Origin: a virus
DNA: 24,665 nt
UHGV virus genome: UHGV-1848590
Direction: 5' to 3' (one strand)
Both the position numbers and the translations under genes were made by a program. A model generated the notes under the pieces. That model did not search any database. It was given only the letters and a program-made list of their open reading frames with translations, and was not told the origin of the DNA. This document shows, piece after piece, positions 4,593 to 24,665 of this stretch; within the stretch, counting starts at the first letter, position 1, and every line of letters starts with the position of its first letter.

Positions 4593-6320
4593 TTACTCAG
4601 AGTCACCGGCATCAATCGTGTCGCCGCTTATGAAGTTAAGCCCGCCTTTTTTGGCCATTGTCAGCGTTACACGAGTGAAGTAATCAGCGCCGTTGCGTGG
4701 GTGCATATCGTTGATAGCCGAACCCCACAGTGTGGTACGGTTGACCAGCGCCGGAGTGGTCGGATGCTGGAACGGGATAGCCGGGACAGCATCACCAGTC
4801 ACGAAGCCTGCTTTACCCGGATTTTCATCACGGACGTAGCACAGCACATCCATCGAGCTGAACTGAATGTTCTCTGTCGTTAAGTTCTTACAAATACCAG
4901 CAGGTACTTCGTACACTTTCACGTTACCGAACAGGGTACCGATGTAGTGAACATACGGAGTCTGGATATAGTCTTCGGCTGGCTGGAAGAAATCCTTCGG
5001 CAACTGTTTGAAGAAAGATGCTGCATCAGCACCAGCAAACATCCCCATCGCACCAGAAGATTTAACGCGCTCAATAATGTCGCGATATACAGTCTGGAAT
5101 TTGCCACGAATGATGGTTGCCCATACATTAAAGGACTGGTTAACCGGCAGAGCGATGTCAAAGGTGTCGGTCGCAAGAGTACGCCAGATCATGATGCGAA
5201 GACGCAGCATATCCTGTTCATGAGACAGGTATTCCTTCAGGGTGCGGAACTGTAGGGAACCCAGGTCCAGACCAAATTCACGCTGTGCTTCATACGCCGC
5301 CTGTACCGTGTGCTCAGCCGCGATAACGAACTGACTTGGGAACAGGGTGTATTTCTTCATTTCGTGGTTGATCAGCGGGATCAGCTCAGGTGCGGCTTCA
5401 ATATTGATTTCCGTCTCAATTGCGATCTCAGTGCCTTTATCCGGCGCTTTGGAGAACGACAGGGCAATCTGACCAATGTTGTAGTTCAGAGAGCAGGTAA
5501 CAGTGATTTGCTCACCAGCAGCATTAGTAAACGAGTGAAGTAGGCTGCCGGAACCGTTATCAACAACAGACTTAATACGGTTAACGTAGATGTTAGTGCG
5601 ACCTTTTCGGATTGGTACATTCTGGCCTTCGAAGTCTTCCATCTTGAAGGTTGCGGTTTTGCTGGTGCCATCGGAGCTTGCCACCAGCACATAGCGGCGA
5701 CGTAACTGGCTGTACACACCAACGGATTGCATGTCCAGAACATCACCAGCAGCATAAGAACCAAAAGAGGAACCTGCCACGTTAAAGACTTCATAGATGT
5801 CGGACTGGTCACGCGTAACCGGAATGAAGGTACACGCATCAGCGGTAGCTGCCCCCAACTGAACAGGCAGGATCATCGCGAGGAATAAAGGCAGACGCAT
5901 AACACCGTCAGAAACGCTCATCATCTCTGCTGCGACGGATTCCAGCATCGCTTTATTAGTGGCATCCATGCTATTGCGGGTGGACTCAATCAGGCAGTTT
6001 TCCAGCGTCTGGTGGCAGGAGGCCAGAATTTCCGGACGCGGCATAGATTTATGTGCTGCGGCGTAGTCAGCCAGTGCACTTGCCCACGCTGTAGCGATTT
6101 GAGCGGTGGCATTATCAGAGATACCCGCAAAAACCGGGTCTTTACGTGCAGCTTCAAGGATAGATGCGGCACGCGCGGCATCATCTTTAATGAATTGGTT
6201 ATCAGTACCGAACTGCGCAGTGCTTGCCCAGCCAAGCACAGCTTTAGAGCGTTTTGCGATATCTGCAATACGATTCTGGTATTCGCGTAAGTTACTCAAT
6301 TTACTCTTCCTTAAACACAA
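4593..6320 (-). CDS. putative major head protein precursor (575 aa ORF; P1 gp23-like)
   Basis: Large ORF next to parS; helical N-terminal ~160 aa could be a cleaved delta/scaffold domain; annotated start is TTG at 6320, an alternative TTG at 6299 has an AGGAAG RBS; assignment by size and position only. Confidence 0.4.
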   Translation of the reverse strand: MCLRKSKLSNLREYQNRIADIAKRSKAVLGWASTAQFGTDNQFIKDDAARAASILEAARKDPVFAGISDNATAQIATAWASALADYAAAHKSMPRPEILASCHQTLENCLIESTRNSMDATNKAMLESVAAEMMSVSDGVMRLPLFLAMILPVQLGAATADACTFIPVTRDQSDIYEVFNVAGSSFGSYAAGDVLDMQSVGVYSQLRRRYVLVASSDGTSKTATFKMEDFEGQNVPIRKGRTNIYVNRIKSVVDNGSGSLLHSFTNAAGEQITVTCSLNYNIGQIALSFSKAPDKGTEIAIETEINIEAAPELIPLINHEMKKYTLFPSQFVIAAEHTVQAAYEAQREFGLDLGSLQFRTLKEYLSHEQDMLRLRIMIWRTLATDTFDIALPVNQSFNVWATIIRGKFQTVYRDIIERVKSSGAMGMFAGADAASFFKQLPKDFFQPAEDYIQTPYVHYIGTLFGNVKVYEVPAGICKNLTTENIQFSSMDVLCYVRDENPGKAGFVTGDAVPAIPFQHPTTPALVNRTTLWGSAINDMHPRNGADYFTRVTLTMAKKGGLNFISGDTIDAGDSE

Positions 6321-6435
6321 GGCACTTGTGTGAATCCCTTTTCGGAAGAGATTTTATTGAAAGTCACTTGTTGACTTTCTCGTGACAAGCAATTTTTTTA
6401 TTTTTTCGGGAGTAGGGGAGGAAGGTAAAATCCAA

Positions 6436-6520
6436 GGTGAAATCGTGGCGATTTCACCTTGAAATTTTAGATGGATTTACTTTAAAAACAGTAGGTTAAT
6501 AGTGAAATTTGAATGGCGAA
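6436..6520 (-). other. parS: parS partition site (centromere)
   Basis: Minus-strand reading TCGCCATTCAAATTTCACTATTAAC...AAAATTTCAAGGTGAAATCGCCACGATTTCACC: ParB box A heptamers (ATTTCAC) and box B hexamers (TCGCCA) flanking an AT-rich IHF-like core; near-identical to P1 parS as I recall it. Confidence 0.85.
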
Positions 6521-6523
6521 AGT

Positions 6524-7525
6524 TTAAGGCTTCGGCTTTTTATCGAGGCTCTTTCTAAGGATATGCCCAATCATCCTGTCGAGTTCTTCCTGTAGCTCTT
6601 TTGAAAGTCGATTAAACTCATAAGAAAATGCACGGCCTTTCACGCGCTTCCTTGCAAAGCGATCCTTGTCCTCAAATTTCCATAATTCAGTAACTACGGA
6701 CTTATCTTTAGAACCTTTATCCGTGAGTAGTGAGGCTTCCTTTGTTATCAAGCGCAGGATTTTATTTTTAACTTCATCTTCGGCCATTTCTTCAATGGAT
6801 AAGATGTCGTTTATTTCCGGGGATATGTTTTGAATAAGCTGATCAAACTCTAAATTCTTGTTCCCCATTTCGTCGCCAACAGCACAAAGCGTTTTGTAGT
6901 CCGAAAAGGTTAATTCCGACTGCACAGGGAAAAGGGCGACTAATTCTTCCGGAGCACTCGCTGCCTGGAGAGCACGCGTGACCTTAGCCTGAGACAGCCC
7001 TTCTTTGGCTGCAATATCCTTCTGACTCATCCCATCATTTTTCATTCGCATCAAACGCAGACCTATTTCTCGAATGCTGTGCTGCAATGCTGTCTGAACG
7101 TCTTTCGCTAAATTTTGCGCTTCCTGAACGCTGATCTCCTGGTCCGTGACTAAAACCCGCAACCCTACGTTCTCTAAGATGGCAGAAGCTCGACGCCGGG
7201 AACCATCCAAAATTTCAATTTTCCCTGTACCCCGTCTAACACCTATTGCAGGGTAAAATTGCTGATGCTTAATAGTGCTTCGGATACTTTTTAATGATTT
7301 TGGCGTAAGAGATGCCTGGTCACGCCCGTTGTTATGCTGATCAACAAAGGTATCGCTTTCTACCTGGTTCGGAGGTATTACCTCTTCAATAAATGTGGCC
7401 TGGCGACCAGTTGATAACTTGAATACCTGCTCGACTCGATCGCCAGAGGCTGAAGAACTATCAAATCCGCTTAATATTGAAGGATTAAGGGTTCGCCCAA
7501 TTGTTGGTCTGTTTTTCTTTGACAT
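6524..7525 (-). CDS. parB: ParB partition protein (333 aa)
   Basis: Full-length, P1 ParB-like sequence; directly follows parA, with parS downstream. Confidence 0.95.
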   Translation of the reverse strand: MSKKNRPTIGRTLNPSILSGFDSSSASGDRVEQVFKLSTGRQATFIEEVIPPNQVESDTFVDQHNNGRDQASLTPKSLKSIRSTIKHQQFYPAIGVRRGTGKIEILDGSRRRASAILENVGLRVLVTDQEISVQEAQNLAKDVQTALQHSIREIGLRLMRMKNDGMSQKDIAAKEGLSQAKVTRALQAASAPEELVALFPVQSELTFSDYKTLCAVGDEMGNKNLEFDQLIQNISPEINDILSIEEMAEDEVKNKILRLITKEASLLTDKGSKDKSVVTELWKFEDKDRFARKRVKGRAFSYEFNRLSKELQEELDRMIGHILRKSLDKKPKP

Positions 7526-8906: not shown

Positions 8907-9716
8907 TTATTTGCTAAGAGCAGCGAATAATCGTTCGAAATCGATAGTATCTATAGCACGCGTAAGCGCCGGAAGTTCAGCCTCAAAGTACCCGTGTCGA
9001 TCGTAAAAGAAGGGACCGAAGAGCGAGGCATGTTGGATTCTACTTCGCCCCAGCCCGGACACACAGTTAAGCCCATTACCGGCTAAAAGGCTAAAAAACT
9101 TCTCTGGATTATCGTGGTAAAGCTGAGAATCAATGGTGGCGGTTAACTCTTCCATAGGGAAGCACACCCGCCCTGTCTCCCAGGGATATTTAGTCCGAAG
9201 CATAAACATTGCTTTCAGCAATTCACATTGAGCGCGGATCGCGTCCGGTTCATAGCCAGATATGGAGACATAAGCCACGTCCCTCATTCCTGCGTCATCT
9301 TTGAAAGTCACGATAGAAGTAACATCCAGTTCTTTTTCGAAAGAGCGAGCAGCATCTACTGGACGCTGAAGTAAATCATTCGACTTAATGCGCTCGAGAA
9401 TCCCTCCCCACATATCATTTAGATATTCGATATGAGCCAAAACCTTATCAAGACACTCTCGTGTAAACCATTCAGTATGCCCGCCACCGGCGCTTTTCTC
9501 CCACGGCGCATTCCAGGGGAAAAAGGTTGCGTGTAAAGCCCGCTCAAGATTAACCATTGCCAAACGCGTACCACGATAGACCCGTGAAAGCGCAAAATCG
9601 GGACTCACTTGTAGCCCTTTAAACCGTGCCAATGGACCACATGAAATGCCGATTTTAAAAGTATCTCCGTTCTCCGGCACCAGAACGTAGAGGTAGTGTT
9701 GTTTCTCTTCTTGCAT
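8907..9716 (-). CDS. T5orf172 (GIY-YIG-like) domain protein with unknown C-terminal domain (269 aa)
   Basis: N-terminal HYLYVLVPENGDTFKIGIS...LARFKGLQ...LERALHATF...GGHTEWFTRECLDKV follows the T5orf172/GIY-YIG pattern; own terminator; no strong SD at the ATG. Confidence 0.55.
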   Translation of the reverse strand: MQEEKQHYLYVLVPENGDTFKIGISCGPLARFKGLQVSPDFALSRVYRGTRLAMVNLERALHATFFPWNAPWEKSAGGGHTEWFTRECLDKVLAHIEYLNDMWGGILERIKSNDLLQRPVDAARSFEKELDVTSIVTFKDDAGMRDVAYVSISGYEPDAIRAQCELLKAMFMLRTKYPWETGRVCFPMEELTATIDSQLYHDNPEKFFSLLAGNGLNCVSGLGRSRIQHASLFGPFFYDRHGYFEAELPALTRAIDTIDFERLFAALSK

Positions 9717-13421: not shown

Positions 13422-13438
13422 ATTGCTCTAATAAATAT
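13422..13438 (+). promoter_or_regulatory. C1 repressor operator-like site upstream of uhr-hrdC-dmt
   Basis: ATTGCTCTAATAAATAT, 16/17 match to the P1 C1 operator consensus ATTGCTCTAATAAATTT as I recall it. Confidence 0.55.
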
Positions 13439-13794: not shown

Positions 13795-14692
13795 GCACTG
13801 GAAAAACATTACTATTTATAAACTTTCTCGTGAGGCGGATCTGACCGACTTAGAAGATAAAAAGAAAATGATCCTTTTCACGCCATGCGGTAGTCAGGAT
13901 ATGGCCAAGTTCGGTTTTGTATCGCCATTTGGTGATAATTCTGAAGTTATCGCTATGCATGGAAATGGTTTTATCCTTGTTGAAGCAAAGCGCGAAACAA
14001 AAATTCTTCCCCCGCCGGTTATCCAGCGAGCTATTCAAGAAAAAATTGAAAAACTTGAGCAAGAACAAGCGCGTAAACTGAAGAAAACAGAGAAGGACTC
14101 CCTGAAAGACGAAGTTCTGCATTCTCTTCTGCCACGGGCTTTTTCAAAGTTTTCTGTTATCCAGGCGATCTACGACGGTTCAACTAAACGTATCTATATC
14201 AATGCCAGCGCGCGGCAGGCAGAGGATATGCTCGCGCTTATGCGTAAGTCTCTGGGTTCTCTTCCTGCTGTTCCCCTGAGTGTTGAAAATCCCATTGAAT
14301 TAACGCTGACCGACTGGGTACGTGATGGTAGTGCTCCACAGGGATTTCAAATGGGGGATGCGGCAGAACTTAAGGCAGTGCTTGAGGATGGCGGTATTGC
14401 CCGAGTGAAAAAGCAGGATTTGGGAAGCGATGAAATTTCCACACACCTGGAAGCTGGCAAGCTCGTCACTAAGTTGGCACTCGACTGGCAGAACCGCATT
14501 AAATTTACACTGGACCATAACTTCAGCCTTACCAGCGTCAAATTTGCGGATGAATTGCTTGAGCAGAACTCTGATATTGATAGTGAAGATGTTGCGCAGC
14601 GACTGGACGCAGATTTCTTCCTGTTGACCAGTGAAATTTCGTGCCTGGTTGATGCTCTGGTAAATGCCCTTGGCGGAGAGGCTAAGCAGTGA
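13787..14692 (+). CDS. hrdC: RdgC-family recombination-associated protein homolog (302 aa)
   Basis: Strong end-to-end similarity to E. coli RdgC as I recall it ([69 protein letters not shown]-terminal LGGEA); ATG 13787 with AAGGG RBS. Confidence 0.9.
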
Positions 14693-17600
14693 AAGAGCTG
14701 TGCTATGGATCTGTTTGCAGTGGAATTGAAGCCGCGAGTATTGCCTGGGAACCGTTGGGTATGCGTCCGGCGTGGTTTGCTGAAATCGAGCCTTTTCCAT
14801 CGGCCGTTCTTGCGCTCCGCTGGCCCCATGTTGCCAACCTTGGCGACATGAAAAAACTTGCCAAAAAAGTCTTGGCTGGGGAAATCGAATCCCCTGACGT
14901 GCTCGTCGGGGGAACACCATGTTTTACCGCGGGGCATATGGTTCTTTGTAAAAATGGCTATAAACCAATAGAAAATGTTTGCCCTGGTGATTACGTAGTC
15001 AGTCATCTCGGGCGGTTACAACAAGTAAAAAGAGTTGGTTCAAAAATAGCTAATACGGGGTTACTTAATGCCGTTGGGCAGCCTTTAGGTATAAGAACAA
15101 CCAATGACCATCCCTTCCTGGCTGTTCGGTGGAAAGCCCAAAACACCCGGAAAAATGGCACATATTTTAAGAGAGAGTTGTTGTCTGAACCGGAATGGCG
15201 AGCAGCATGTGATATGCCGGGATATCAATGGTGCGCTCTAACTAATTTCAATATTGCATTTCCAGATATTTGTTCTCGGTTCTTGTCTGAAGAACAGGCT
15301 ATGTATCTTGCGGGCGCTTATGTTGGCGATGGATATATTAGGAGATGGAGAGGTAAATCTAAGAAGGCGGTTGTTTTTGGCATAAATTGCCAGAAATTGA
15401 GAAAGTTTCATTGCCGCATACCAGAAAACATATTTTCCGTGGCAAGCGAAATCCGAGGGAGCATCAAAGTAACCTTGAATGATACGTGTTATGCCAATTG
15501 GCTTAATGAACATTTTGGCGAGTTAAGCCATGCTAAGCGTATCCCTGCATGGGTGATGTCGCATCCATTGCGTCATGTGTTTTTACAAGGCTATCTTGAT
15601 ACTGATGGGACACCAAGTGGTAAAGCGGGATTTAGAATTAATAGTGTTAGTTCTGCGCTTGCTTGGGGCGTTGCGGGGTTGTCACAGACTTGTGGTTATG
15701 TTTCTTCGGTCAGCTTTATTGAAGTTGAGCCCAAAAAAGTGATCGAGGATCGCGTGGTAAATCAACGGAATTATTATCAGGTAACAATCTGCCCGCAGAA
15801 ATTGTCACGTAAATCAAGATTGGCTCATGGAATGCTTTTACGAACAGTCAAAGAGTTTAAATCGGTAGGCCTAGATACTGTATACAACATAGAAGTCGAA
15901 GGTGATCATTCCTATATCCTCAATGGTGCGGTGGTCCATAACTGTCAGGCATTCAGTATCGCGGGATTACGTGGTGGGCTTGATGATGAGCGTGGCGCGC
16001 TAACTTTAAAGTATGTGGAGCTTGCAAATGCAATTGACGACAAACGGGCTGAGTCATTTCTCAAACCAGCCGTTATCGTCTGGGAAAATGTCCCAGGAGT
16101 CTTGTCATCGGCAGATAACGCCTTCGGATGTTTCCTTGCCGGATTGGCTGGAGAAGATGTGCCATTTGAACCAGGTGATCGACCTGAATCAGGAAAAAGC
16201 AACGCGTTCTGGCGGTGGGATGGCAAAACCGGTTGCCATGTTCCAAAGTGGCCGCAGTGTGGTTGTATTTATGGACCGCAGCGAAAAGTGGCCTGGAGAA
16301 TCCTTGATGCCCAATACTTCGGAGTGGCACAACGACGCCGACGCGTGTTTGTTGTCGCAAGTGCTCGAACAGATCTCGATCCCGCAACGGTACTTTTTGA
16401 GTTCGAAGGCGTGCGCCGGAATATTGCGCCGAGCAGAGGCGAGGGGAAGGAAACTACCAGATATACTTCAAACATCGCTATCAGAACTTGCGATGATACA
16501 AACATAATTGCCATGGCACATGGGCAAGGAGGGGCTGAGATAAAAACCGATAATTCGGCACCAACTTTGACATGTAACCATGAAGCACCAATTGTATTGC
16601 TCGGCGACGGTAGAATGCGCCGTCTTACCCCTGTCGAATGTGAAAGGCTGCAAGGTTTTCCTGATTGGCATACGTTGATCCCTACGGAAAAGCGTAAAAA
16701 AGTTAATTCAGATGAACTGGCATATCTGCACAATCACTATCCAGATTTAAGCGAAGAAGAGGCCGCAATGCTTGCAGCTGACGGACCGCGTTACAAAGCG
16801 ATCGGCAATAGTATGGCAATACCAGTAATGCGCTGGATTGGCGATCGGATTACTAAGGCCGTATGTCGGCAGAAAGAAGGAAGTGAAACAAAAGAGCGAA
16901 AAGTTAAACCAGCGGCAGAATTCGAACGGTCCATATTCAAATGGGCTGGTGGAAAATTTGGTGTTCTGGAACAAATCTTTCGCTATTTGCCAGAAGGGAA
17001 GCGCCTGATTGAACCTTTCGTTGGTGGCGGAGCTGTCTTCATGAATGCCGGATACCAGGAAAATCTGCTAAATGATGTGAATGCTGACCTGATTAACTTT
17101 TACAAGACTCTGCAACGCGAGGCGCATTCACTTATCACTCTGGCACATCGTTTCTTCCAGGACTACAACACACAGGAAGGATACCTGGCAGTACGGAATG
17201 CGTTTAACAAACAAGTCTATGATGATTTACATCGCGCAGCGGCGTTTTTGTTCCTGAACCGACATTGTTTTAACGGATTGACGCGTTACAACCAGGCCGG
17301 TGAGTTCAATGTCGGTTATGGGAAGTATAAAACTCCGTATTTCCCATTACAGGAGATGGAAGCCTTCCTCGGTGCGGAAGGGCGGTCTGAGTTTGTATGC
17401 GGTGATTTTGCAGCGGTGATTGAAGCTGCCGGAGAAGGAGATGTCATCTTTTGCGATCCGCCGTATGAACCGCTTCCAAATACAGAGGGATTCACGAACT
17501 ATTCCGGTCATGACTTTAAGTTTGAAGAGCAAAAACGCCTGGTGTCTCTGTTGACGGATGCTCATCGTCGAGGTGCAAAGGTTCTCATTACTAACAGTGG

Positions 17601-17730
17601 CGCGCCAAACATCAGAGAGCTTTATCATGACAGTGGCTTCAGAGTGGAACCTCTTTTTGCCAGACGTTCTGTGTCTTGTAAGGGGGACACTCGAGGTGTA
17701 GCTCATGACGTTTTGGGTATATTGCTCTAA
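14689..17730 (+). CDS. dmt: bifunctional DNA methyltransferase Dmt (N-terminal C5-cytosine MTase, C-terminal Dam-like N6-adenine MTase) interrupted by an intein; 1013 aa precursor
   Basis: C5-MTase motifs I (CSGIEAAS), IV ([12 protein letters not shown], split), VI (VWENVPG), VIII (QRRRRVFVV), X (GNSMAIPV); Dam domain from ~residue 745 (FKWAGGKF...FCDPPYEP); GTG start overlaps the rdgC stop. Confidence 0.9.
14920..15942 (+). mobile_element. intein with LAGLIDADG homing endonuclease (341 aa, residues 78-418 of Dmt)
   Basis: Block [21 protein letters not shown], block [17 protein letters not shown] motifs [11 protein letters not shown] and [11 protein letters not shown], blocks [23 protein letters not shown] followed by +1 Cys; flanks rejoin as [12 protein letters not shown]. 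Confidence 0.85.
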
Positions 17731-17737
17731 TAAATTT
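17721..17737 (+). promoter_or_regulatory. C1 operator-like site overlapping a promoter
   Basis: Exact ATTGCTCTAATAAATTT overlapping the dmt stop; -35-like TTGCTC (17722-17727), 17 bp spacer, -10-like TAATAT (17745-17750). Confidence 0.6.
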
Positions 17738-17749
17738 ATTAGTGTAATA

Positions 17750-18402: not shown

Positions 18403-18477
18403 GATGGTGTAGCTCAGCGGTAGAGCAGTTGGCTGTTAACCAACTGGTCGGTAGTTCGAATCCACCCACCATCGCCA
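18403..18477 (+). tRNA. tRNA-Asn (anticodon GTT)
   Basis: Manual cloverleaf: acceptor gatggtg/caccatc, D-arm gctc...gagc, anticodon arm gttgg-ctGTTaa-ccaac, TTCGAAT T-loop, encoded CCA. Confidence 0.85.
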
Positions 18478-18482
18478 CTTTA

Positions 18483-18569
18483 GGGGAGTTAGTCCGTAGG
18501 GGTAGCGGGGTAGACTGTAAATCTACTGTCATTGCGACTCGGGTGGTTCGACTCCATCACTCCCCACCA
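18483..18569 (+). tRNA. tRNA-like element, Tyr(GTA)-like class II, noncanonical acceptor/D-arm junction (possible pseudo-tRNA)
   Basis: Acceptor ggggagt/actcccc + A + CCA, anticodon arm gtaga-ctGTAaa-tctac, long variable arm, TTCGACT T-loop; acceptor-to-D-stem linker is irregular. Confidence 0.4.
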
Positions 18570-18573
18570 CATT

Positions 18574-18649
18574 GCCGATTTAGCTCAGTTGGTAGAGCAG
18601 TCGCTTTGTAAGCGAATGGTCAGCGGTTCGATCCCGTTAATCGGCACCA
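18574..18649 (+). tRNA. tRNA-Thr (anticodon TGT)
   Basis: Acceptor gccgatt/aatcggc, D-arm gctc-agttggta-gagc, anticodon loop ttTGTaa, TTCGATC T-loop, encoded CCA. Confidence 0.85.
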
Positions 18650-19522: not shown

Positions 19523-19759
19523 ATGCAGAACAATCCGAACAAATGTCGAACGCTATGGGTGCGGTTATATATTTATGCCGTCCTCTGTTTGATTGTGTCA
19601 CTGGTTCTGTATGTTTGGCTTTTGCCAAATATGATCTCATCTAACAGCACAATACTTGTATTGTTGGGAGTCCTTCTCGCGCTCATTTACCCGGCTTTCG
19701 CAGTAGTCTTTTTTCGTGAAAAAACCAGGAAATTAATTAATGAAAAAAACGTTGATTAG
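19523..19759 (+). CDS. upl: small two-helix membrane protein (78 aa; upl-like)
   Basis: GAGAGG RBS; two hydrophobic segments; overlaps the start of the downstream lipoprotein gene. Confidence 0.55.
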   Translation: MQNNPNKCRTLWVRLYIYAVLCLIVSLVLYVWLLPNMISSNSTILVLLGVLLALIYPAFAVVFFREKTRKLINEKNVD

Positions 19760-20567
19760 TGCAGCGATTATTTTGGGTTCTTTATGTCTGACCGGATGCG
19801 ATCGGGTAGAGCCAGGTAACGTAGGGATCAAAGTAAATAAGCTGGGGGATGATAAAGGTATCGGTGAAGTAGTTGGCGTTGGTCGCTACTGGACAGGCTT
19901 GAATACTGAAGTTTATATCTTCCCGACCTTTAAGCAAATGAAGACATACGATGAGCCGTTCAGCTTCCAGATGAGCGACGGAACAACCATTGGTTACCAC
20001 ATCGGCGTAGCCTACAAGGTTGATCCAGCAAAAGTCACAACGGTATTTCAGACCTATCGCAAAGGTGTAGATGATATTACTGATACCGATCTACGCCAGA
20101 AGGTTGCAGATGCTCTGAACCGATTAGCCAGCAAAATGACCACCGACAAATTTATCGACGGTGGCAAATCTGAATTGCTTGATGCAGCCCTTAAAGACAT
20201 TCAGGAAGAAATGACGCCAATCGGCATTCAGGTGATGAGCCTCTCTTATGTAGGTAAGCCAGAATACCCGCCAACAGTTATTGACAGTATTAACGCCAAA
20301 GTCACGGCAAACCAAAAAACCCTGCAACGCGAGCAAGAGGTCAAACAACGTGAAGCAGAGGCCAACATGCTGCGCGCGGAAGCTGCCGGACAGGCTGATG
20401 CTATTCGCACAAAAGCCCAGGCCGAAGCTGATGCCATTCGTTTACGTGGTGAAGCTCTGCGCCAGAACCCCGGTGTTATGGACTTGGAAGCGATCAACAA
20501 ATGGAACGGTACATTACCGCAGTATATGACCAGTAATACCGCTGTTCCGTTTGTTCCGGTGAAATAA
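19740..20567 (+). CDS. plp: SPFH/band-7 (prohibitin-like) lipoprotein (275 aa; plp-like)
   Basis: Signal peptide with lipobox LTG-C; SPFH-like core and Ala/Glu-rich coiled-coil C-terminus. Confidence 0.75.
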   Translation: MKKTLISAAIILGSLCLTGCDRVEPGNVGIKVNKLGDDKGIGEVVGVGRYWTGLNTEVYIFPTFKQMKTYDEPFSFQMSDGTTIGYHIGVAYKVDPAKVTTVFQTYRKGVDDITDTDLRQKVADALNRLASKMTTDKFIDGGKSELLDAALKDIQEEMTPIGIQVMSLSYVGKPEYPPTVIDSINAKVTANQKTLQREQEVKQREAEANMLRAEAAGQADAIRTKAQAEADAIRLRGEALRQNPGVMDLEAINKWNGTLPQYMTSNTAVPFVPVK

Positions 20568-20594: not shown

Positions 20595-20670
20595 GGCCCT
20601 TTAGCTCAGTGGTTAGAGCTGGCGACTCATAATCGCACGGTCACCGGTTCAAGTCCGGTAGGGGCCACCA
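20595..20670 (+). tRNA. tRNA-Ile2 (anticodon CAT, lysidine type)
   Basis: Near-identical in layout to E. coli ileX as I recall it: acceptor ggccctt/aggggcc, anticodon arm ggcga-ctCATaa-tcgc, TTCAAGT T-loop, encoded CCA. Confidence 0.85.
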
Positions 20671-22314: not shown

Positions 22315-23313
22315 ATGCAATGGAATGAGGAAAAGCCGATGAACATCCTGATCATTGGGCGAAAATTTGAAGCTATCAGTGATGTGAAAACATATACGGA
22401 AATGTGGGCTTACAACCTGGCCTGCGCCTTTAGTGAGGCAGGGGTAACATTGCAATACCATCGTCCATATTCCCCTGGCGTCGAAAGCCCCGAGGATTAT
22501 GTTGAAGCTGTGTTGACTGCTGCGACAGCATGTTCTGCGAAGGCCATTTTGGCACCAGGATTGAGGTATTTTACTACGGTACCCAGGGAAATAGGCATGC
22601 AACTGTGTCGCCGATTCTCTGGATGGGTAGCCCAGGTATATGACGGTTCTATGCTGGATTCGGCACCAGTCGATATTACTTTTACTGTCCGCGATGATAC
22701 CTGGCGGTACCTGGATAATCCCGGTCGGTTAGAACGTCATAATCGCTTTAACAAACATGTTGGATGGGCAGCGAATCAGGAGCTGTTCCATCTGGAAACC
22801 AAAACGGACGATGTTCTGCGTATTTTTGTAGACCACGCTGCATTTGATGTTAGTGGTTTTGATCACTCCTTAAGTATCCTTATGAACCTTCAGCGTCTGA
22901 CCGTTCCGTATGAGGCCAGAACGTTGACCGATGACGGATTGATTACCATTGATCCGGGGAATATATCGGTAACCCCATACAGACGGACGCCGGTACCAGC
23001 AACCGAATTTGCAGCTGAATTGCGTAAGAGTGACGTGTTTATCGTTACGCATCCCGAAAGCCTTGGATTAACTGTACTTGAGGCGGCAATGTGCGGGGCG
23101 TTGGTATTAACGCCTCCCGATTGTCTTCCGCCAGATCGCCTGGCTTTGGTGAACCATATGGTTATCAAGTCGCGGATTGATTGGGATGAGGTTATTGCTC
23201 GCGTTGATCGCGTGAAAAATGCTGAAAAGGTCCAGTGTCACACCTGGTCGGCAATTGCGGAAAAGATGCTTGAAACGTTTATCACGCAGAAACCGTCGCG
23301 CGGTAATGATTGA
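22315..23313 (+). CDS. dbn: Dbn-position protein with glycosyltransferase-like C-terminal motif (332 aa)
   Basis: AAGAGG RBS 7 nt before the ATG, immediately after the ban stop; HPESLGLTVLEAAMCGALVL resembles the GT-B nucleotide-sugar binding motif. Confidence 0.45.
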   Translation: MQWNEEKPMNILIIGRKFEAISDVKTYTEMWAYNLACAFSEAGVTLQYHRPYSPGVESPEDYVEAVLTAATACSAKAILAPGLRYFTTVPREIGMQLCRRFSGWVAQVYDGSMLDSAPVDITFTVRDDTWRYLDNPGRLERHNRFNKHVGWAANQELFHLETKTDDVLRIFVDHAAFDVSGFDHSLSILMNLQRLTVPYEARTLTDDGLITIDPGNISVTPYRRTPVPATEFAAELRKSDVFIVTHPESLGLTVLEAAMCGALVLTPPDCLPPDRLALVNHMVIKSRIDWDEVIARVDRVKNAEKVQCHTWSAIAEKMLETFITQKPSRGND

Positions 23314-23359: not shown

Positions 23360-23391
23360 ATTGCTCTAATAAATTTGATTTATTAGAGCAA
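23360..23391. promoter_or_regulatory. paired inverted C1 operator-like sites
   Basis: ATTGCTCTAATAAATTT (23360-23376) and, 3 bp away, an inverted copy of the TTGCTCTAATAAAT core (23378-23391). Confidence 0.55.
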
Positions 23392-23692
23392 ATAAACTAC
23401 CATCGAACGCCAGACTATTGATCTTCCTGTTGTTCAGGCTTATAGTTCCTACGTCGTAGTAAATTCTGCGACCGGGTTTGACAGCCTGAATGTACATGCG
23501 GACAACCGCAGATATCCGATATTGCGGTATTTTTGTGTCCGTAAACCACGTTACGCCCGAATTATGGTGGGGCGTGATGGGGAGGCTTCGGCCTGCTGGT
23601 TTCATGTACGCCAGTCTGCTAACCCCGTCACGTCCTGCCACCTGTTTGACAGCGGGTAGCAGGTTGTTAAACCTGTACATGAGGCCGTAACT

Positions 23693-23914
23693 ATGGTTAA
23701 TGCCAATCCTTGCGCACGCCCTGAATTTATCTGGCGCTTTTACTCCTGCCAGAAACGTCACTATCACTTCGTTATTGCACCGACAGAAGATGAGGCTCGC
23801 TCTCAGCTTCCGGATGCTCCCTGCATTTTCTCCGCACGCTTTTCTACTGACTCGCGCAATTCTCTCAGTTACTGGTGCCTCCCTGTTAACGCTTCTGTTC
23901 AGGAGGGGCTATGA
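23693..23914 (+). CDS. small protein (73 aa), translationally coupled to downstream gene; icd-like position
   Basis: GAGG RBS 8 nt before the ATG; stop TGA overlaps the next ATG (ATGA). Confidence 0.4.
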   Translation: MVNANPCARPEFIWRFYSCQKRHYHFVIAPTEDEARSQLPDAPCIFSARFSTDSRNSLSYWCLPVNASVQEGL

Positions 23915-24665
23915 GAACGTCATTAGTCACCCGTGAAGAGATGATCGAGGCAATTGAACAGCACACAATCTGTATCAGCACCAGGGATATACCAGGCGTT
24001 ATTGCCAACTACTTCATGATCACCAAACAACTTTACCGGAGAAAGGACAAGAACGCGGTTCACCGTATCCTGTTGTCTGATATCCGCGAATACCTGCTCG
24101 AACAGGGTCATCTGAATTACGCAACCGTCGCAGCCGAAGCACGCAAGGAGGCACACAGAATGAAAGCAACTAACGTTAAATCAGAAAAAATTCATGCAAC
24201 TTCAGTTCAGGAATCGGAGCTGGTGGTTGTTCAGAATCAGTCTGATGAAATTCCCGTTCTGGAATGGCTGGGAGTGCGTGTAGTGACAACTGAGACTCTT
24301 GCTAAAGGGTATGGGACCGATGAAGCGAATATTCGTAAAAATTTGTCTCGCAACCCCGATCGCTTTGAAGAAGGTAAGCATTACTATCTCTTAACTGGTT
24401 CAAAATTAAAGGAATTTAAAAGGCTAGTGACTATTAGTCACTTGGTTAGCAAATATACAAGTCAGGTAATTCTCTGGGCCGAGCGCGGAGCGGCACGCAT
24501 GTCTAAGATCGTGGACACAAATGAAGCGTGGGCATTCTTTGAAAAACTGGAAGACAGCTACTTCCGGCAAAAAGAACAGCAACCGGTCGCAATCCCTCAG
24601 ACGCTTCCCGAAGCTCTGCGCCTGGCTGCCGAGCTGGCTGAACAAAAGCAACTTCTGGAACAGAA
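23911..24665 (+). CDS. antirepressor-like protein, partial (runs off window end); in-frame internal start at 24160
   Basis: AGGAGG before ATG 23911; open frame to the window end (not in the ORF track, having no stop); second strong AAGGAGG RBS before in-frame ATG 24160; region from ~residue 110 (VLEWLGVRVVTTETLAKGYGTDEANIRKNLSRNPDRFEEGKHYYLL) resembles ORF6N/Rha-type antirepressor N-domains. Confidence 0.45.
   Translation, partial: MRTSLVTREEMIEAIEQHTICISTRDIPGVIANYFMITKQLYRRKDKNAVHRILLSDIREYLLEQGHLNYATVAAEARKEAHRMKATNVKSEKIHATSVQESELVVVQNQSDEIPVLEWLGVRVVTTETLAKGYGTDEANIRKNLSRNPDRFEEGKHYYLLTGSKLKEFKRLVTISHLVSKYTSQVILWAERGAARMSKIVDTNEAWAFFEKLEDSYFRQKEQQPVAIPQTLPEALRLAAELAEQKQLLEQ

Follow-up and report, generated by a model that had tools for sequence, protein, structure and literature searches.

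Background

The immI locus of phage P1 is the textbook example of antisense-RNA control of a lysis-lysogeny switch. Its antirepressor, Ant, binds and inactivates the repressor C1, and its antisense RNA, c4, is matured by RNase P. Phage P7 is the classical heteroimmune partner of P1, and the heteroimmunity of the two is explained by a few bases in c4. Here we describe a module of this kind in the final 1.3 kb (positions 23360-24665, 3' of the gene dbn) of a 24,665-nucleotide stretch of the virus genome UHGV-1848590; this whole stretch is called the window. Sequence comparison identifies the window as a segment of a P1-like plasmid prophage. The module is likely a complete, and probably functional, additional copy of the P1/P7 immI locus: a cassette of about 1.7 kb that replaces the terminator between dbn and gene 5. 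The kind of locus is known; the extra copy at the rare dbn site, and a change of address in its c4 RNA, would be new.

A second described system with a comparable layout is isrK-orf45-anrP of Gifsy-1. There, the leader small RNA IsrK (STnc1160) ends at an intrinsic terminator, read-through leads to a small open reading frame (ORF) whose stop overlaps the start of the antirepressor gene (AUGA), and a processed RNA is complementary to the leader (PMC4825925). The two systems differ in that the short RNA of Gifsy-1 activates translation, and in that the leader of the window matches the c4-a1b1 motif rather than isrK: the isrK covariance model (Rfam RF01394) has no match in the window.

Results

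An immI module at the end of the window

From the promoter to the end of icd, the window is 88.5% identical to positions 48209-48660 of P1, and 87% identical to P7. The annotated P1 features Oc4, P2c4, P1c4, a1, b1, hairpin, c4, a2, b2, icd, ant1 and ant2 all have a counterpart in the window, as follows.

23360..23376, + strand: C1 operator ATTGCTCTAATAAATTT, agreeing with the P1 C1 consensus at 17/17 positions (0 mismatches) and aligned with P1 Oc4 (Op51)
23376..23392, - strand: inverted second operator half-site, 3 mismatches, which renders the operator bivalent
23375..23403, + strand: putative promoter TTGATT-17-TACCAT, likely C1-controlled, aligned with P1 P2c4/P51a TTGTAT-17-TATCTT
23418..23446, + strand: promoter TTGATC-17-TATAGT, the equivalent of P1 P1c4/P51b (promoter scan and P1 alignment)
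23440..23492, + strand: c4-a1b1 motif, Rfam RF03163 ("a1, b1 targets of C4"), 52 bits against a gathering threshold of 46.7
23478..23484, + strand: a1 target TTGACAG, P1-type
23492..23499, + strand: b1 target GTACATGC, neither the P1 nor the P7 allele
23506..23537, + strand: hairpin CCGCAGATAT-CCG-ATATTGCGG and U-run TATTTTTGTG (folding and conservation)
23566..23642, + strand: c4 antisense RNA, 77 nt by alignment to P1 c4 (Rfam C4 and folding)
23603..23609, + strand: b' CATGTAC, in the hairpin loop of c4
23616..23622, + strand: a' CTGCTAA, in the single-stranded joint of c4
23646..23652, + strand: a2 target TTGACAG, P1-type, not complementary to the a' of the window c4
23675..23684, + strand: b2 target GTACATGA, overlapping the icd Shine-Dalgarno (SD) sequence GAGG at 23681-23684
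23693..23914, + strand: icd homologue, 73 codons (P1 Icd and NF033153)
23911..24665, + strand: ant1, truncated at the window end, with its ATG overlapping the stop codon of icd (ATGA, 23911-23914); phrog_63
24160..24665, + strand: ant2, in-frame internal start 83 codons into ant1, with SD AAGGAGG at 24146-24152

An earlier note on this DNA had proposed that the region mirrors the logic of P1 immI, pointing to paired inverted C1 operator-like sites, a duplicated leader motif, a terminator-like hairpin with a T-run, a 73-codon ORF whose stop overlaps the next start, a strong in-frame internal start 83 codons further on, and an antirepressor ORF cut by the window edge. Each of these stands, and the alignments to icd, ant and c4 of P1 and P7 that the note called for establish the likeness as homology.

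C1 operator sites with at most 3 mismatches occur 5 times in the window, where 0.13 are expected. The two sites of the module, read directly, make up a 14-bp inverted repeat without mismatches, its arms 3 nt apart; among the related cassettes surveyed below, 35 of the 134 with enough flanking sequence have such a forward and reverse pair. The promoter at 23375-23403 agrees with the consensus at 8/12 positions, under the threshold of the promoter scan. Further operator matches lie at 13422-13438 (1 mismatch) and, as an overlapping inverted pair (0 and 2 mismatches), at 17721-17748, at the end of dmt and before the tRNA-ban operon. Together, these matches indicate that C1 control of the P1 type is used throughout the element.

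The duplicated motif TTGACAG...GTACATG, at 23478-23498 and 23646-23681, is found twice against 0.00 expected (none in 100 shuffles). Given the Rfam placements and the alignment of P1 features, its copies are the target pairs a1/b1 and a2/b2, which the earlier note had not recognised. Nor had it placed the c4 gene, suggesting only a search of the leader for a c4-like RNA; that search returns Rfam C4 (RF01695) at 23560-23645, full length over model positions 1-87, with 70.8 bits against a gathering threshold of 45 (E 3e-12). The gene thus lies between the hairpin and a2, that is, between the two copies of the motif, and its fold has an energy of -44.9 kcal/mol (z = -4.9). Its b' CATGTAC pairs with the GTACATG of both b1 and b2; the cognate b duplex, which extends over the icd SD GAGG, has a predicted energy of -19.5 kcal/mol, while non-cognate b sequences give values of -9 to -14.

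The hairpin at 23506-23537 folds with -12.5 kcal/mol (z = -2.7) and, with its U-run, is near-invariant across the 139 cassettes of the survey. A consensus terminator scan left it unflagged; its stem has a bulge. This conservation, together with the isrK match of a related leader (see below) and the likeness to Gifsy-1 IsrK, suggests that it is likely a leaky intrinsic terminator, at which a short leader RNA with a1 and b1 would end.

The Icd protein is 84% identical to P1 Icd and scores 49.8 bits against NCBIfam NF033153 (cut-off 25). The Ant protein matches phrog_63, anti-repressor Ant; its first 83 residues share about 65% identity with the N-terminus specific to P1 Ant1, the linker ahead of its C-terminal domain is conserved with respect to P1, and its two starts have the same offset as those of P1 (48688 and 48937). 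Its centre is an ORF6N domain (PF10543, residues 117-200). The visible ORF has 251 codons and ends before the position of KilAC (PF03374). In a relative whose gene is DNA-identical over 23941-24665, the protein has 370 residues, with the ANT domain at 258-359.

The locus shares with P1 immI (NC_005856, 48140-49731) the order of parts, the length and fold of c4, the ATGA overlap of icd and ant1, and the start of ant2 83 codons in. Its differences, apart from location, are these: the operator of P1 is monovalent and that of the window bivalent; P1 has b GTTAGTG and a' CTGTCAA, where the window has GTACATG and CTGCTAA; and P1 Ant1 has no Pfam match to the ORF6N domain that forms the centre of Ant in the window. 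The overall architecture of P7 immI (AF503408, 50853-52448) is identical, and its c4 has the same a' CTGCTAA as the window. However, in P7, a1 and a2 are both TTAGCAG and b is GATTGTG, all matched, while the window has P1-type a1 and a2 and a third b allele. In sum, the module has nearly all the sequence-level features of a P1/P7 immI locus, and departs from them on two counts: its position, and the complementarity of a' and a2.

Carried over from P1 by homology, the mechanism would run as follows. The constitutive promoter at 23418-23446 would give a leader carrying a1 and b1. Part of the transcripts would end at the hairpin and U-run, and the remainder would continue past it and be processed into the 77-nt c4. 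By its b' loop and a' joint, c4 would pair with b2 and a2, on either side of the icd ribosome-binding site, and block translation of icd; through the translational and transcriptional coupling at the ATGA overlap, expression of ant1 and ant2 would be blocked as well. In a lysogen, C1 bound to the bivalent operator at 23360-23392 would shut the second promoter, at 23375-23403. When c4 control fails, for instance on entry into a cell without a matching c4, Icd and the nested Ant1 and Ant2 would be made, and Ant would inactivate C1. The a and b sequences would then act as a two-part address.

Insertion site and paralogous cassettes

The window is 99.1% identical to Escherichia phage vB_EcoM-Ro157c2YLVW over 92% of its length, 98% identical to RCS47 and 97.5% identical to P1. 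It keeps the P1 gene order: tail and head genes, parB, parA, repA, rdgC, dmt, tRNAs, ban and dbn. The gene next to the module is:

22315..23313, + strand: dbn, 332-aa ORF matching phrog_2518

The cassette starts right at the stop codon of dbn: the protein ends in ...RGND in the window and in ...RGNG in P1, and homology to P1 stops at the last dbn codons. In P1, the end of gene 5 comes directly after dbn, 46 bp on, with no module between them, and immI lies elsewhere, between sim and kilA. The module of the window is thus not at the immI position (between sim and kilA-repL), as the earlier note had remarked when it placed the module next to ban-dbn. In plasmid pE2865-1, which has the same junction as the window, P1 homology picks up again inside the 3' end of gene 5: at this junction, 57 bp of P1 dbn-gene 5 intergenic DNA, including a terminator hairpin, are swapped for about 1.7 kb. 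From such relatives we infer that gene 5 is the right-hand neighbour of the window cassette. The closest phage record, Ro157c2YLVW, has no module at the dbn site, which marks the dbn-site module as an insertion or replacement cassette.

The site is uncommon: the junction is covered by only about 9 of 680 matching PLSDB records. No match to the module of 99% or more was found in the phage, plasmid or complete E. coli collections, and exact-protein look-ups with Icd and Dbn returned relatives only. All ten inspected contigs that encode a Dbn identical to that of the window have a module at the dbn site.

The module also proves to have paralogues, since this phage group has several such cassettes, a point that the earlier note had not recognised. 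Four c4-icd-ant modules, all matching Rfam C4, are found in plasmid pE2865-1: beside mat (towards cra/cre), at the canonical site between sim and kilA, between dbn and gene 5, and in the pacB-c1 interval. The plasmid of STEC799 (NZ_CP173116) has modules at the same four sites. Five insertion sites were seen in all. The fifth, lyz-pro/prt, is found in the draft E. coli genomes L123-L132 (at about 5600-7400 in each), where the Icd protein is identical to that of the window; one contig (GCA_020727805.1) has three cassettes within 18 kb. Complete E. coli genomes with any module match have it at a median of 2 places, and at a maximum of 6. Mosaicism is common among the cassettes, with similar leaders followed by different ant bodies.

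The pacB-c1 cassette of pE2865-1 (L005, 46322-46511) matches both Rfam isrK, in its leader, and Rfam C4, and is the only isrK match found. On this sequence evidence, it links the Gifsy-1 IsrK system and P1 c4 as members of what would be one family.

Extra copies have been noticed before: Venturini et al. (2019) mention in passing additional icd-ant copies near res-mod, and an ant between pacB and c1 (PMC6906374). A literature search found no description of the dbn site and no study of multiple c4 specificities. In the public records of relatives that we inspected, the c4 genes of the extra cassettes are unmarked and the protein genes carry generic annotation; the Icd-like and antirepressor proteins there look like orphan genes.

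The STEC799 plasmid (L143/L144) has a frameshifted c1, as well as cnf3 and IS elements; for these reasons, it may be a defective prophage.

A survey of the address code

We collected 113 further IMG/VR loci with a conserved c4 core, along with loci from reference and draft genomes, and extracted the six address elements a1, b1, b', a', a2 and b2, obtaining 139 complete cassettes. Types are written as a/b, where GA stands for the P1-type a (TTGACAG) and AG for the P7-type a (TTAGCAG), followed by the b sequence.

The six elements are mutually consistent in 137 of the 139 cassettes. There are two alleles of a, those of P1 and P7, and at least six of b (GTTAGTG, GATTGTG, GTACATG, ACGAATG, ACTTGTG and ACTTACG), in many combinations. 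The elements b1, b' and b2 have changed together: GTACATG/CATGTAC in the window, GTTAGTG/CACTAAC in P1 and GATTGTG/CACAATC in P7. The divergent pacB-c1 cassettes follow the same address logic with other sequences; the one of STEC799 (L144, about 48100-48440) has its own matched a and b, e.g. TTGAGAC/GTCTCAA and GTCAAAGG/CCTTTGAC.

In every surveyed genome with at least two cassettes, the types differ: no genome has the same a/b type twice. In pE2865-1, STEC799 and IMG 2534681832, an AG/GTACATG cassette on the mat side is accompanied by a GA/GTACATG cassette at the dbn site, with a as the only difference between the two addresses. IMG 2703718869 has an AG/GTACATG cassette, at a site that could not be classified, beside a dbn-site GA/GTACATG. 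The mat side is of a type other than GA/GTACATG in all four genomes with a dbn-site and an identified mat-side cassette (the three just named and 2698536372). These distributions are suggestive of selection for distinct addresses within a genome, with which effects of lineage and site are confounded. Since paralogous cassettes within one genome carry different addresses, each c4 would control its own ant.

One of the two exceptions is L043 (IMGVR_UViG_2565956613_000015), in which a1, b1, b', a' and a2 are those of AG/ACGAATG but b2 reads GTTAGTG, apparently as the result of recombination with a breakpoint between a2 and b2.

A discordant a' in a mosaic cassette

The window is the other exception, and the only cassette discordant at a: its a' is the P7-type CTGCTAA, and its a1 and a2 are both TTGACAG, a mismatch that the earlier note had not noticed. 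Between a' and a2 there are 5 Watson-Crick pairs, one G-U pair and one A-C mismatch. The six other dbn-site cassettes of the IMG/VR and reference survey are all concordant GA/GTACATG, and the draft-genome dbn-site cassette L133 has b ACGAATG and a P1-type a'.

Two relatives allow a closer comparison. The dbn-site cassettes of pE2865-1 (NZ_AP018809, 69538-71153) and STEC799 (NZ_CP173116, 72392-74024) have the insertion point and junction of the window, and a leader, c4 and icd that are at least 97.8% identical to it, with address GA/GTACATG. They differ from the window in that their a' matches their own a1 and a2, and in that their Ant, of 344 residues and with the ANT domain only, diverges after about 24169. 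The mat-side cassette of STEC799 (NZ_CP173116, 3448-5112) is identical to the window over ant 23941-24665 and over c4 23549-23642, including a'; it differs in lying between mat and cra/cre and in having a1 and a2 TTAGCAG, which match its own a'.

The window copy is thus a mosaic. From 23300 to about 24139, it agrees with the dbn-site cassette of STEC799 except at 23619-20, 23721-22, 23758, 23797, 23800 and 24139, and from 23941 it is identical to the mat-side cassette; in the c4 stretch of mat-side type, a' is the sole visible difference from the dbn type. The simplest account of this pattern would be two exchanges with an AG/GTACATG paralogue of mat type: one replacing the ant body, through a crossover in the conserved N-terminus of ant1, and one a conversion tract of at most 94 nt inside c4, with a' as its only visible effect.

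With a P7-type a' and P1-type a1 and a2, the window copy would repress itself mainly through b pairing: its mismatch at a should weaken self-repression, and its c4 should pair perfectly with an AG/GTACATG cassette at another locus. By sequence, the window c4 would be a perfect match only for a cassette of this type, which is the mat-side one in related plasmids. In the window itself, there is no cognate AG/GTACATG target, save the antisense strand of the c4 gene.

Weighing the explanations

Several observations count against our conclusion that the module is a complete, additional and probably functional immI copy. That it is additional we infer from relatives, since the canonical immI site is outside the window, and an intact KilAC is expected only from the relative identical over 23941-24665, since ant is cut by the window edge. 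When the pairing of c4 at the ribosome-binding site of the small ORF is evaluated, as the earlier note had suggested, the b half holds, with its strong duplex over the SD, and the a half does not: the a'/a2 duplex has a predicted energy of -6.8 kcal/mol, where a cognate one has -12.3 and a non-cognate one about -7, and c4 control of this copy may be impaired. For an 81-mer that covers b', a' and a2, neither the 657 places in 5,426 complete E. coli genomes nor the 672 in PLSDB give a perfect match, the best matches differing by exactly two bases; a 53-mer with the discordance does not occur in the GTDB genomes or the JGI metagenomes. Finally, among the cassettes compared, only the window has an ORF6N-type ant body at the dbn site. 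Since the discordant sequence is found nowhere else and this body is unique at the site, part of the arrangement could be an assembly artefact: assembly or polishing across the near-identical dbn-site and mat-side paralogues would have fused a leader of dbn type to an ant of mat type, and carried over the two nucleotides of a'. In favour of this, the DNA upstream of 23941 matches the dbn-site module, that downstream is identical to the mat-side module of STEC799, and the c4 stretch is of mat type with a' alone setting it apart from the dbn type; moreover, the ten contigs with an identical Dbn all have the 344-aa Ant, without ORF6N, at the dbn site. However, real recombination or gene conversion between paralogues that are 90-98% identical yields the same pattern, the exchange of ant bodies behind similar leaders is common among cassettes, two separate tracts are required whichever process is invoked, and the reading frames and signals of the window are all intact. 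We regard an artefact as unlikely.

A decaying, non-functional duplicate, in which the a' mismatch would reflect relaxed selection and ant would be silent or inactive, seems to us quite improbable. A discordance at a' in just 1 of 139 cassettes is what such decay might leave, and the frameshifted c1 of the close relative STEC799 suggests that some of these plasmids are degenerating. On the other hand, icd and the 251 visible codons of ant are intact, as are the operator, promoters, SDs and hairpin, and the change in a' is no random mutation: it yields precisely the other allele found in nature. It is more improbable still that the module is the sole immI of its genome, relocated from sim-kilA to dbn-gene 5. 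Such a move would be compatible with a window that begins downstream of repL, so that the canonical site is upstream of position 1. However, the window and P1 are collinear to either side of the insertion, and the relatives that have a dbn-site module, and for which the sim-side locus is available (pE2865-1, STEC799, IMG 2703718869 and 2534681832), all keep the canonical module; in pE2865-1 and the STEC799 plasmid, the canonical and the dbn-site module are both among the four present. Simple relocation of a single immI was rejected as the principal explanation because the relatives keep the canonical copy.

An additional, probably functional immI copy thus remains our preferred explanation. 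A bolder extension of it, which we consider possible, though doubtful, is that the a' discordance is real and functional. The cassette would then be cross-wired: the window c4, of type AG/GTACATG, would serve as a second repressor of the mat-side cassette, and its own icd-ant, of type GA/GTACATG, would be held by b pairing only. Such a hold could make this Ant the first to be released when c4 falls, or provide an escape from the c4 of a resident prophage. More generally, P1-like plasmids would have an arsenal of up to four or five orthogonal lock-and-key cassettes of c4 and ant, in which combinatorial two-part addresses serve immunity and anti-immunity and are reshuffled by gene conversion.

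Natural P1-like plasmids stack several immI cassettes, up to four in the related plasmids. Cassettes that share a plasmid have addresses that differ from one another and match within each cassette, and an exchange of two bases could rewire a cassette. Stacked cassettes with orthogonal addresses, reshuffled by recombination, may thus be a wider pattern, and this picture bears on the diversification of superinfection immunity, and of escape from it, in a family of phage-plasmids that is clinically common.

Other features of the window

Four tRNA genes lie on the + strand at 18403-18649 and 20595-20670: Asn-GTT, Tyr-GTA, Thr-TGT and a Met/Ile2-type CAT. The Tyr tRNA gene is absent from the STEC799 plasmid. 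Between parA and repA, at 8907-9716 on the - strand, is an ORF with a T5orf172 (GIY-YIG-related) match, annotated as a GIY-YIG nuclease in relatives and possibly a homing endonuclease. At 19740-20567 (+), an SPFH/Band 7 lipoprotein gene occupies the position of P1 tciA-tciB-tciC; the STEC799 relative retains TerB-type genes.

The Dmt methyltransferase ORF, at 14689-17730 (+), has 1013 residues against 754 in P1. It has Pfam matches to Hint_2 and LAGLIDADG_3 (residues 77-126 and 298-361) before its C5 and N6 methylase domains, which suggests an intein with a homing endonuclease. A related contig, L136, has a Dmt variant of 1203 residues.

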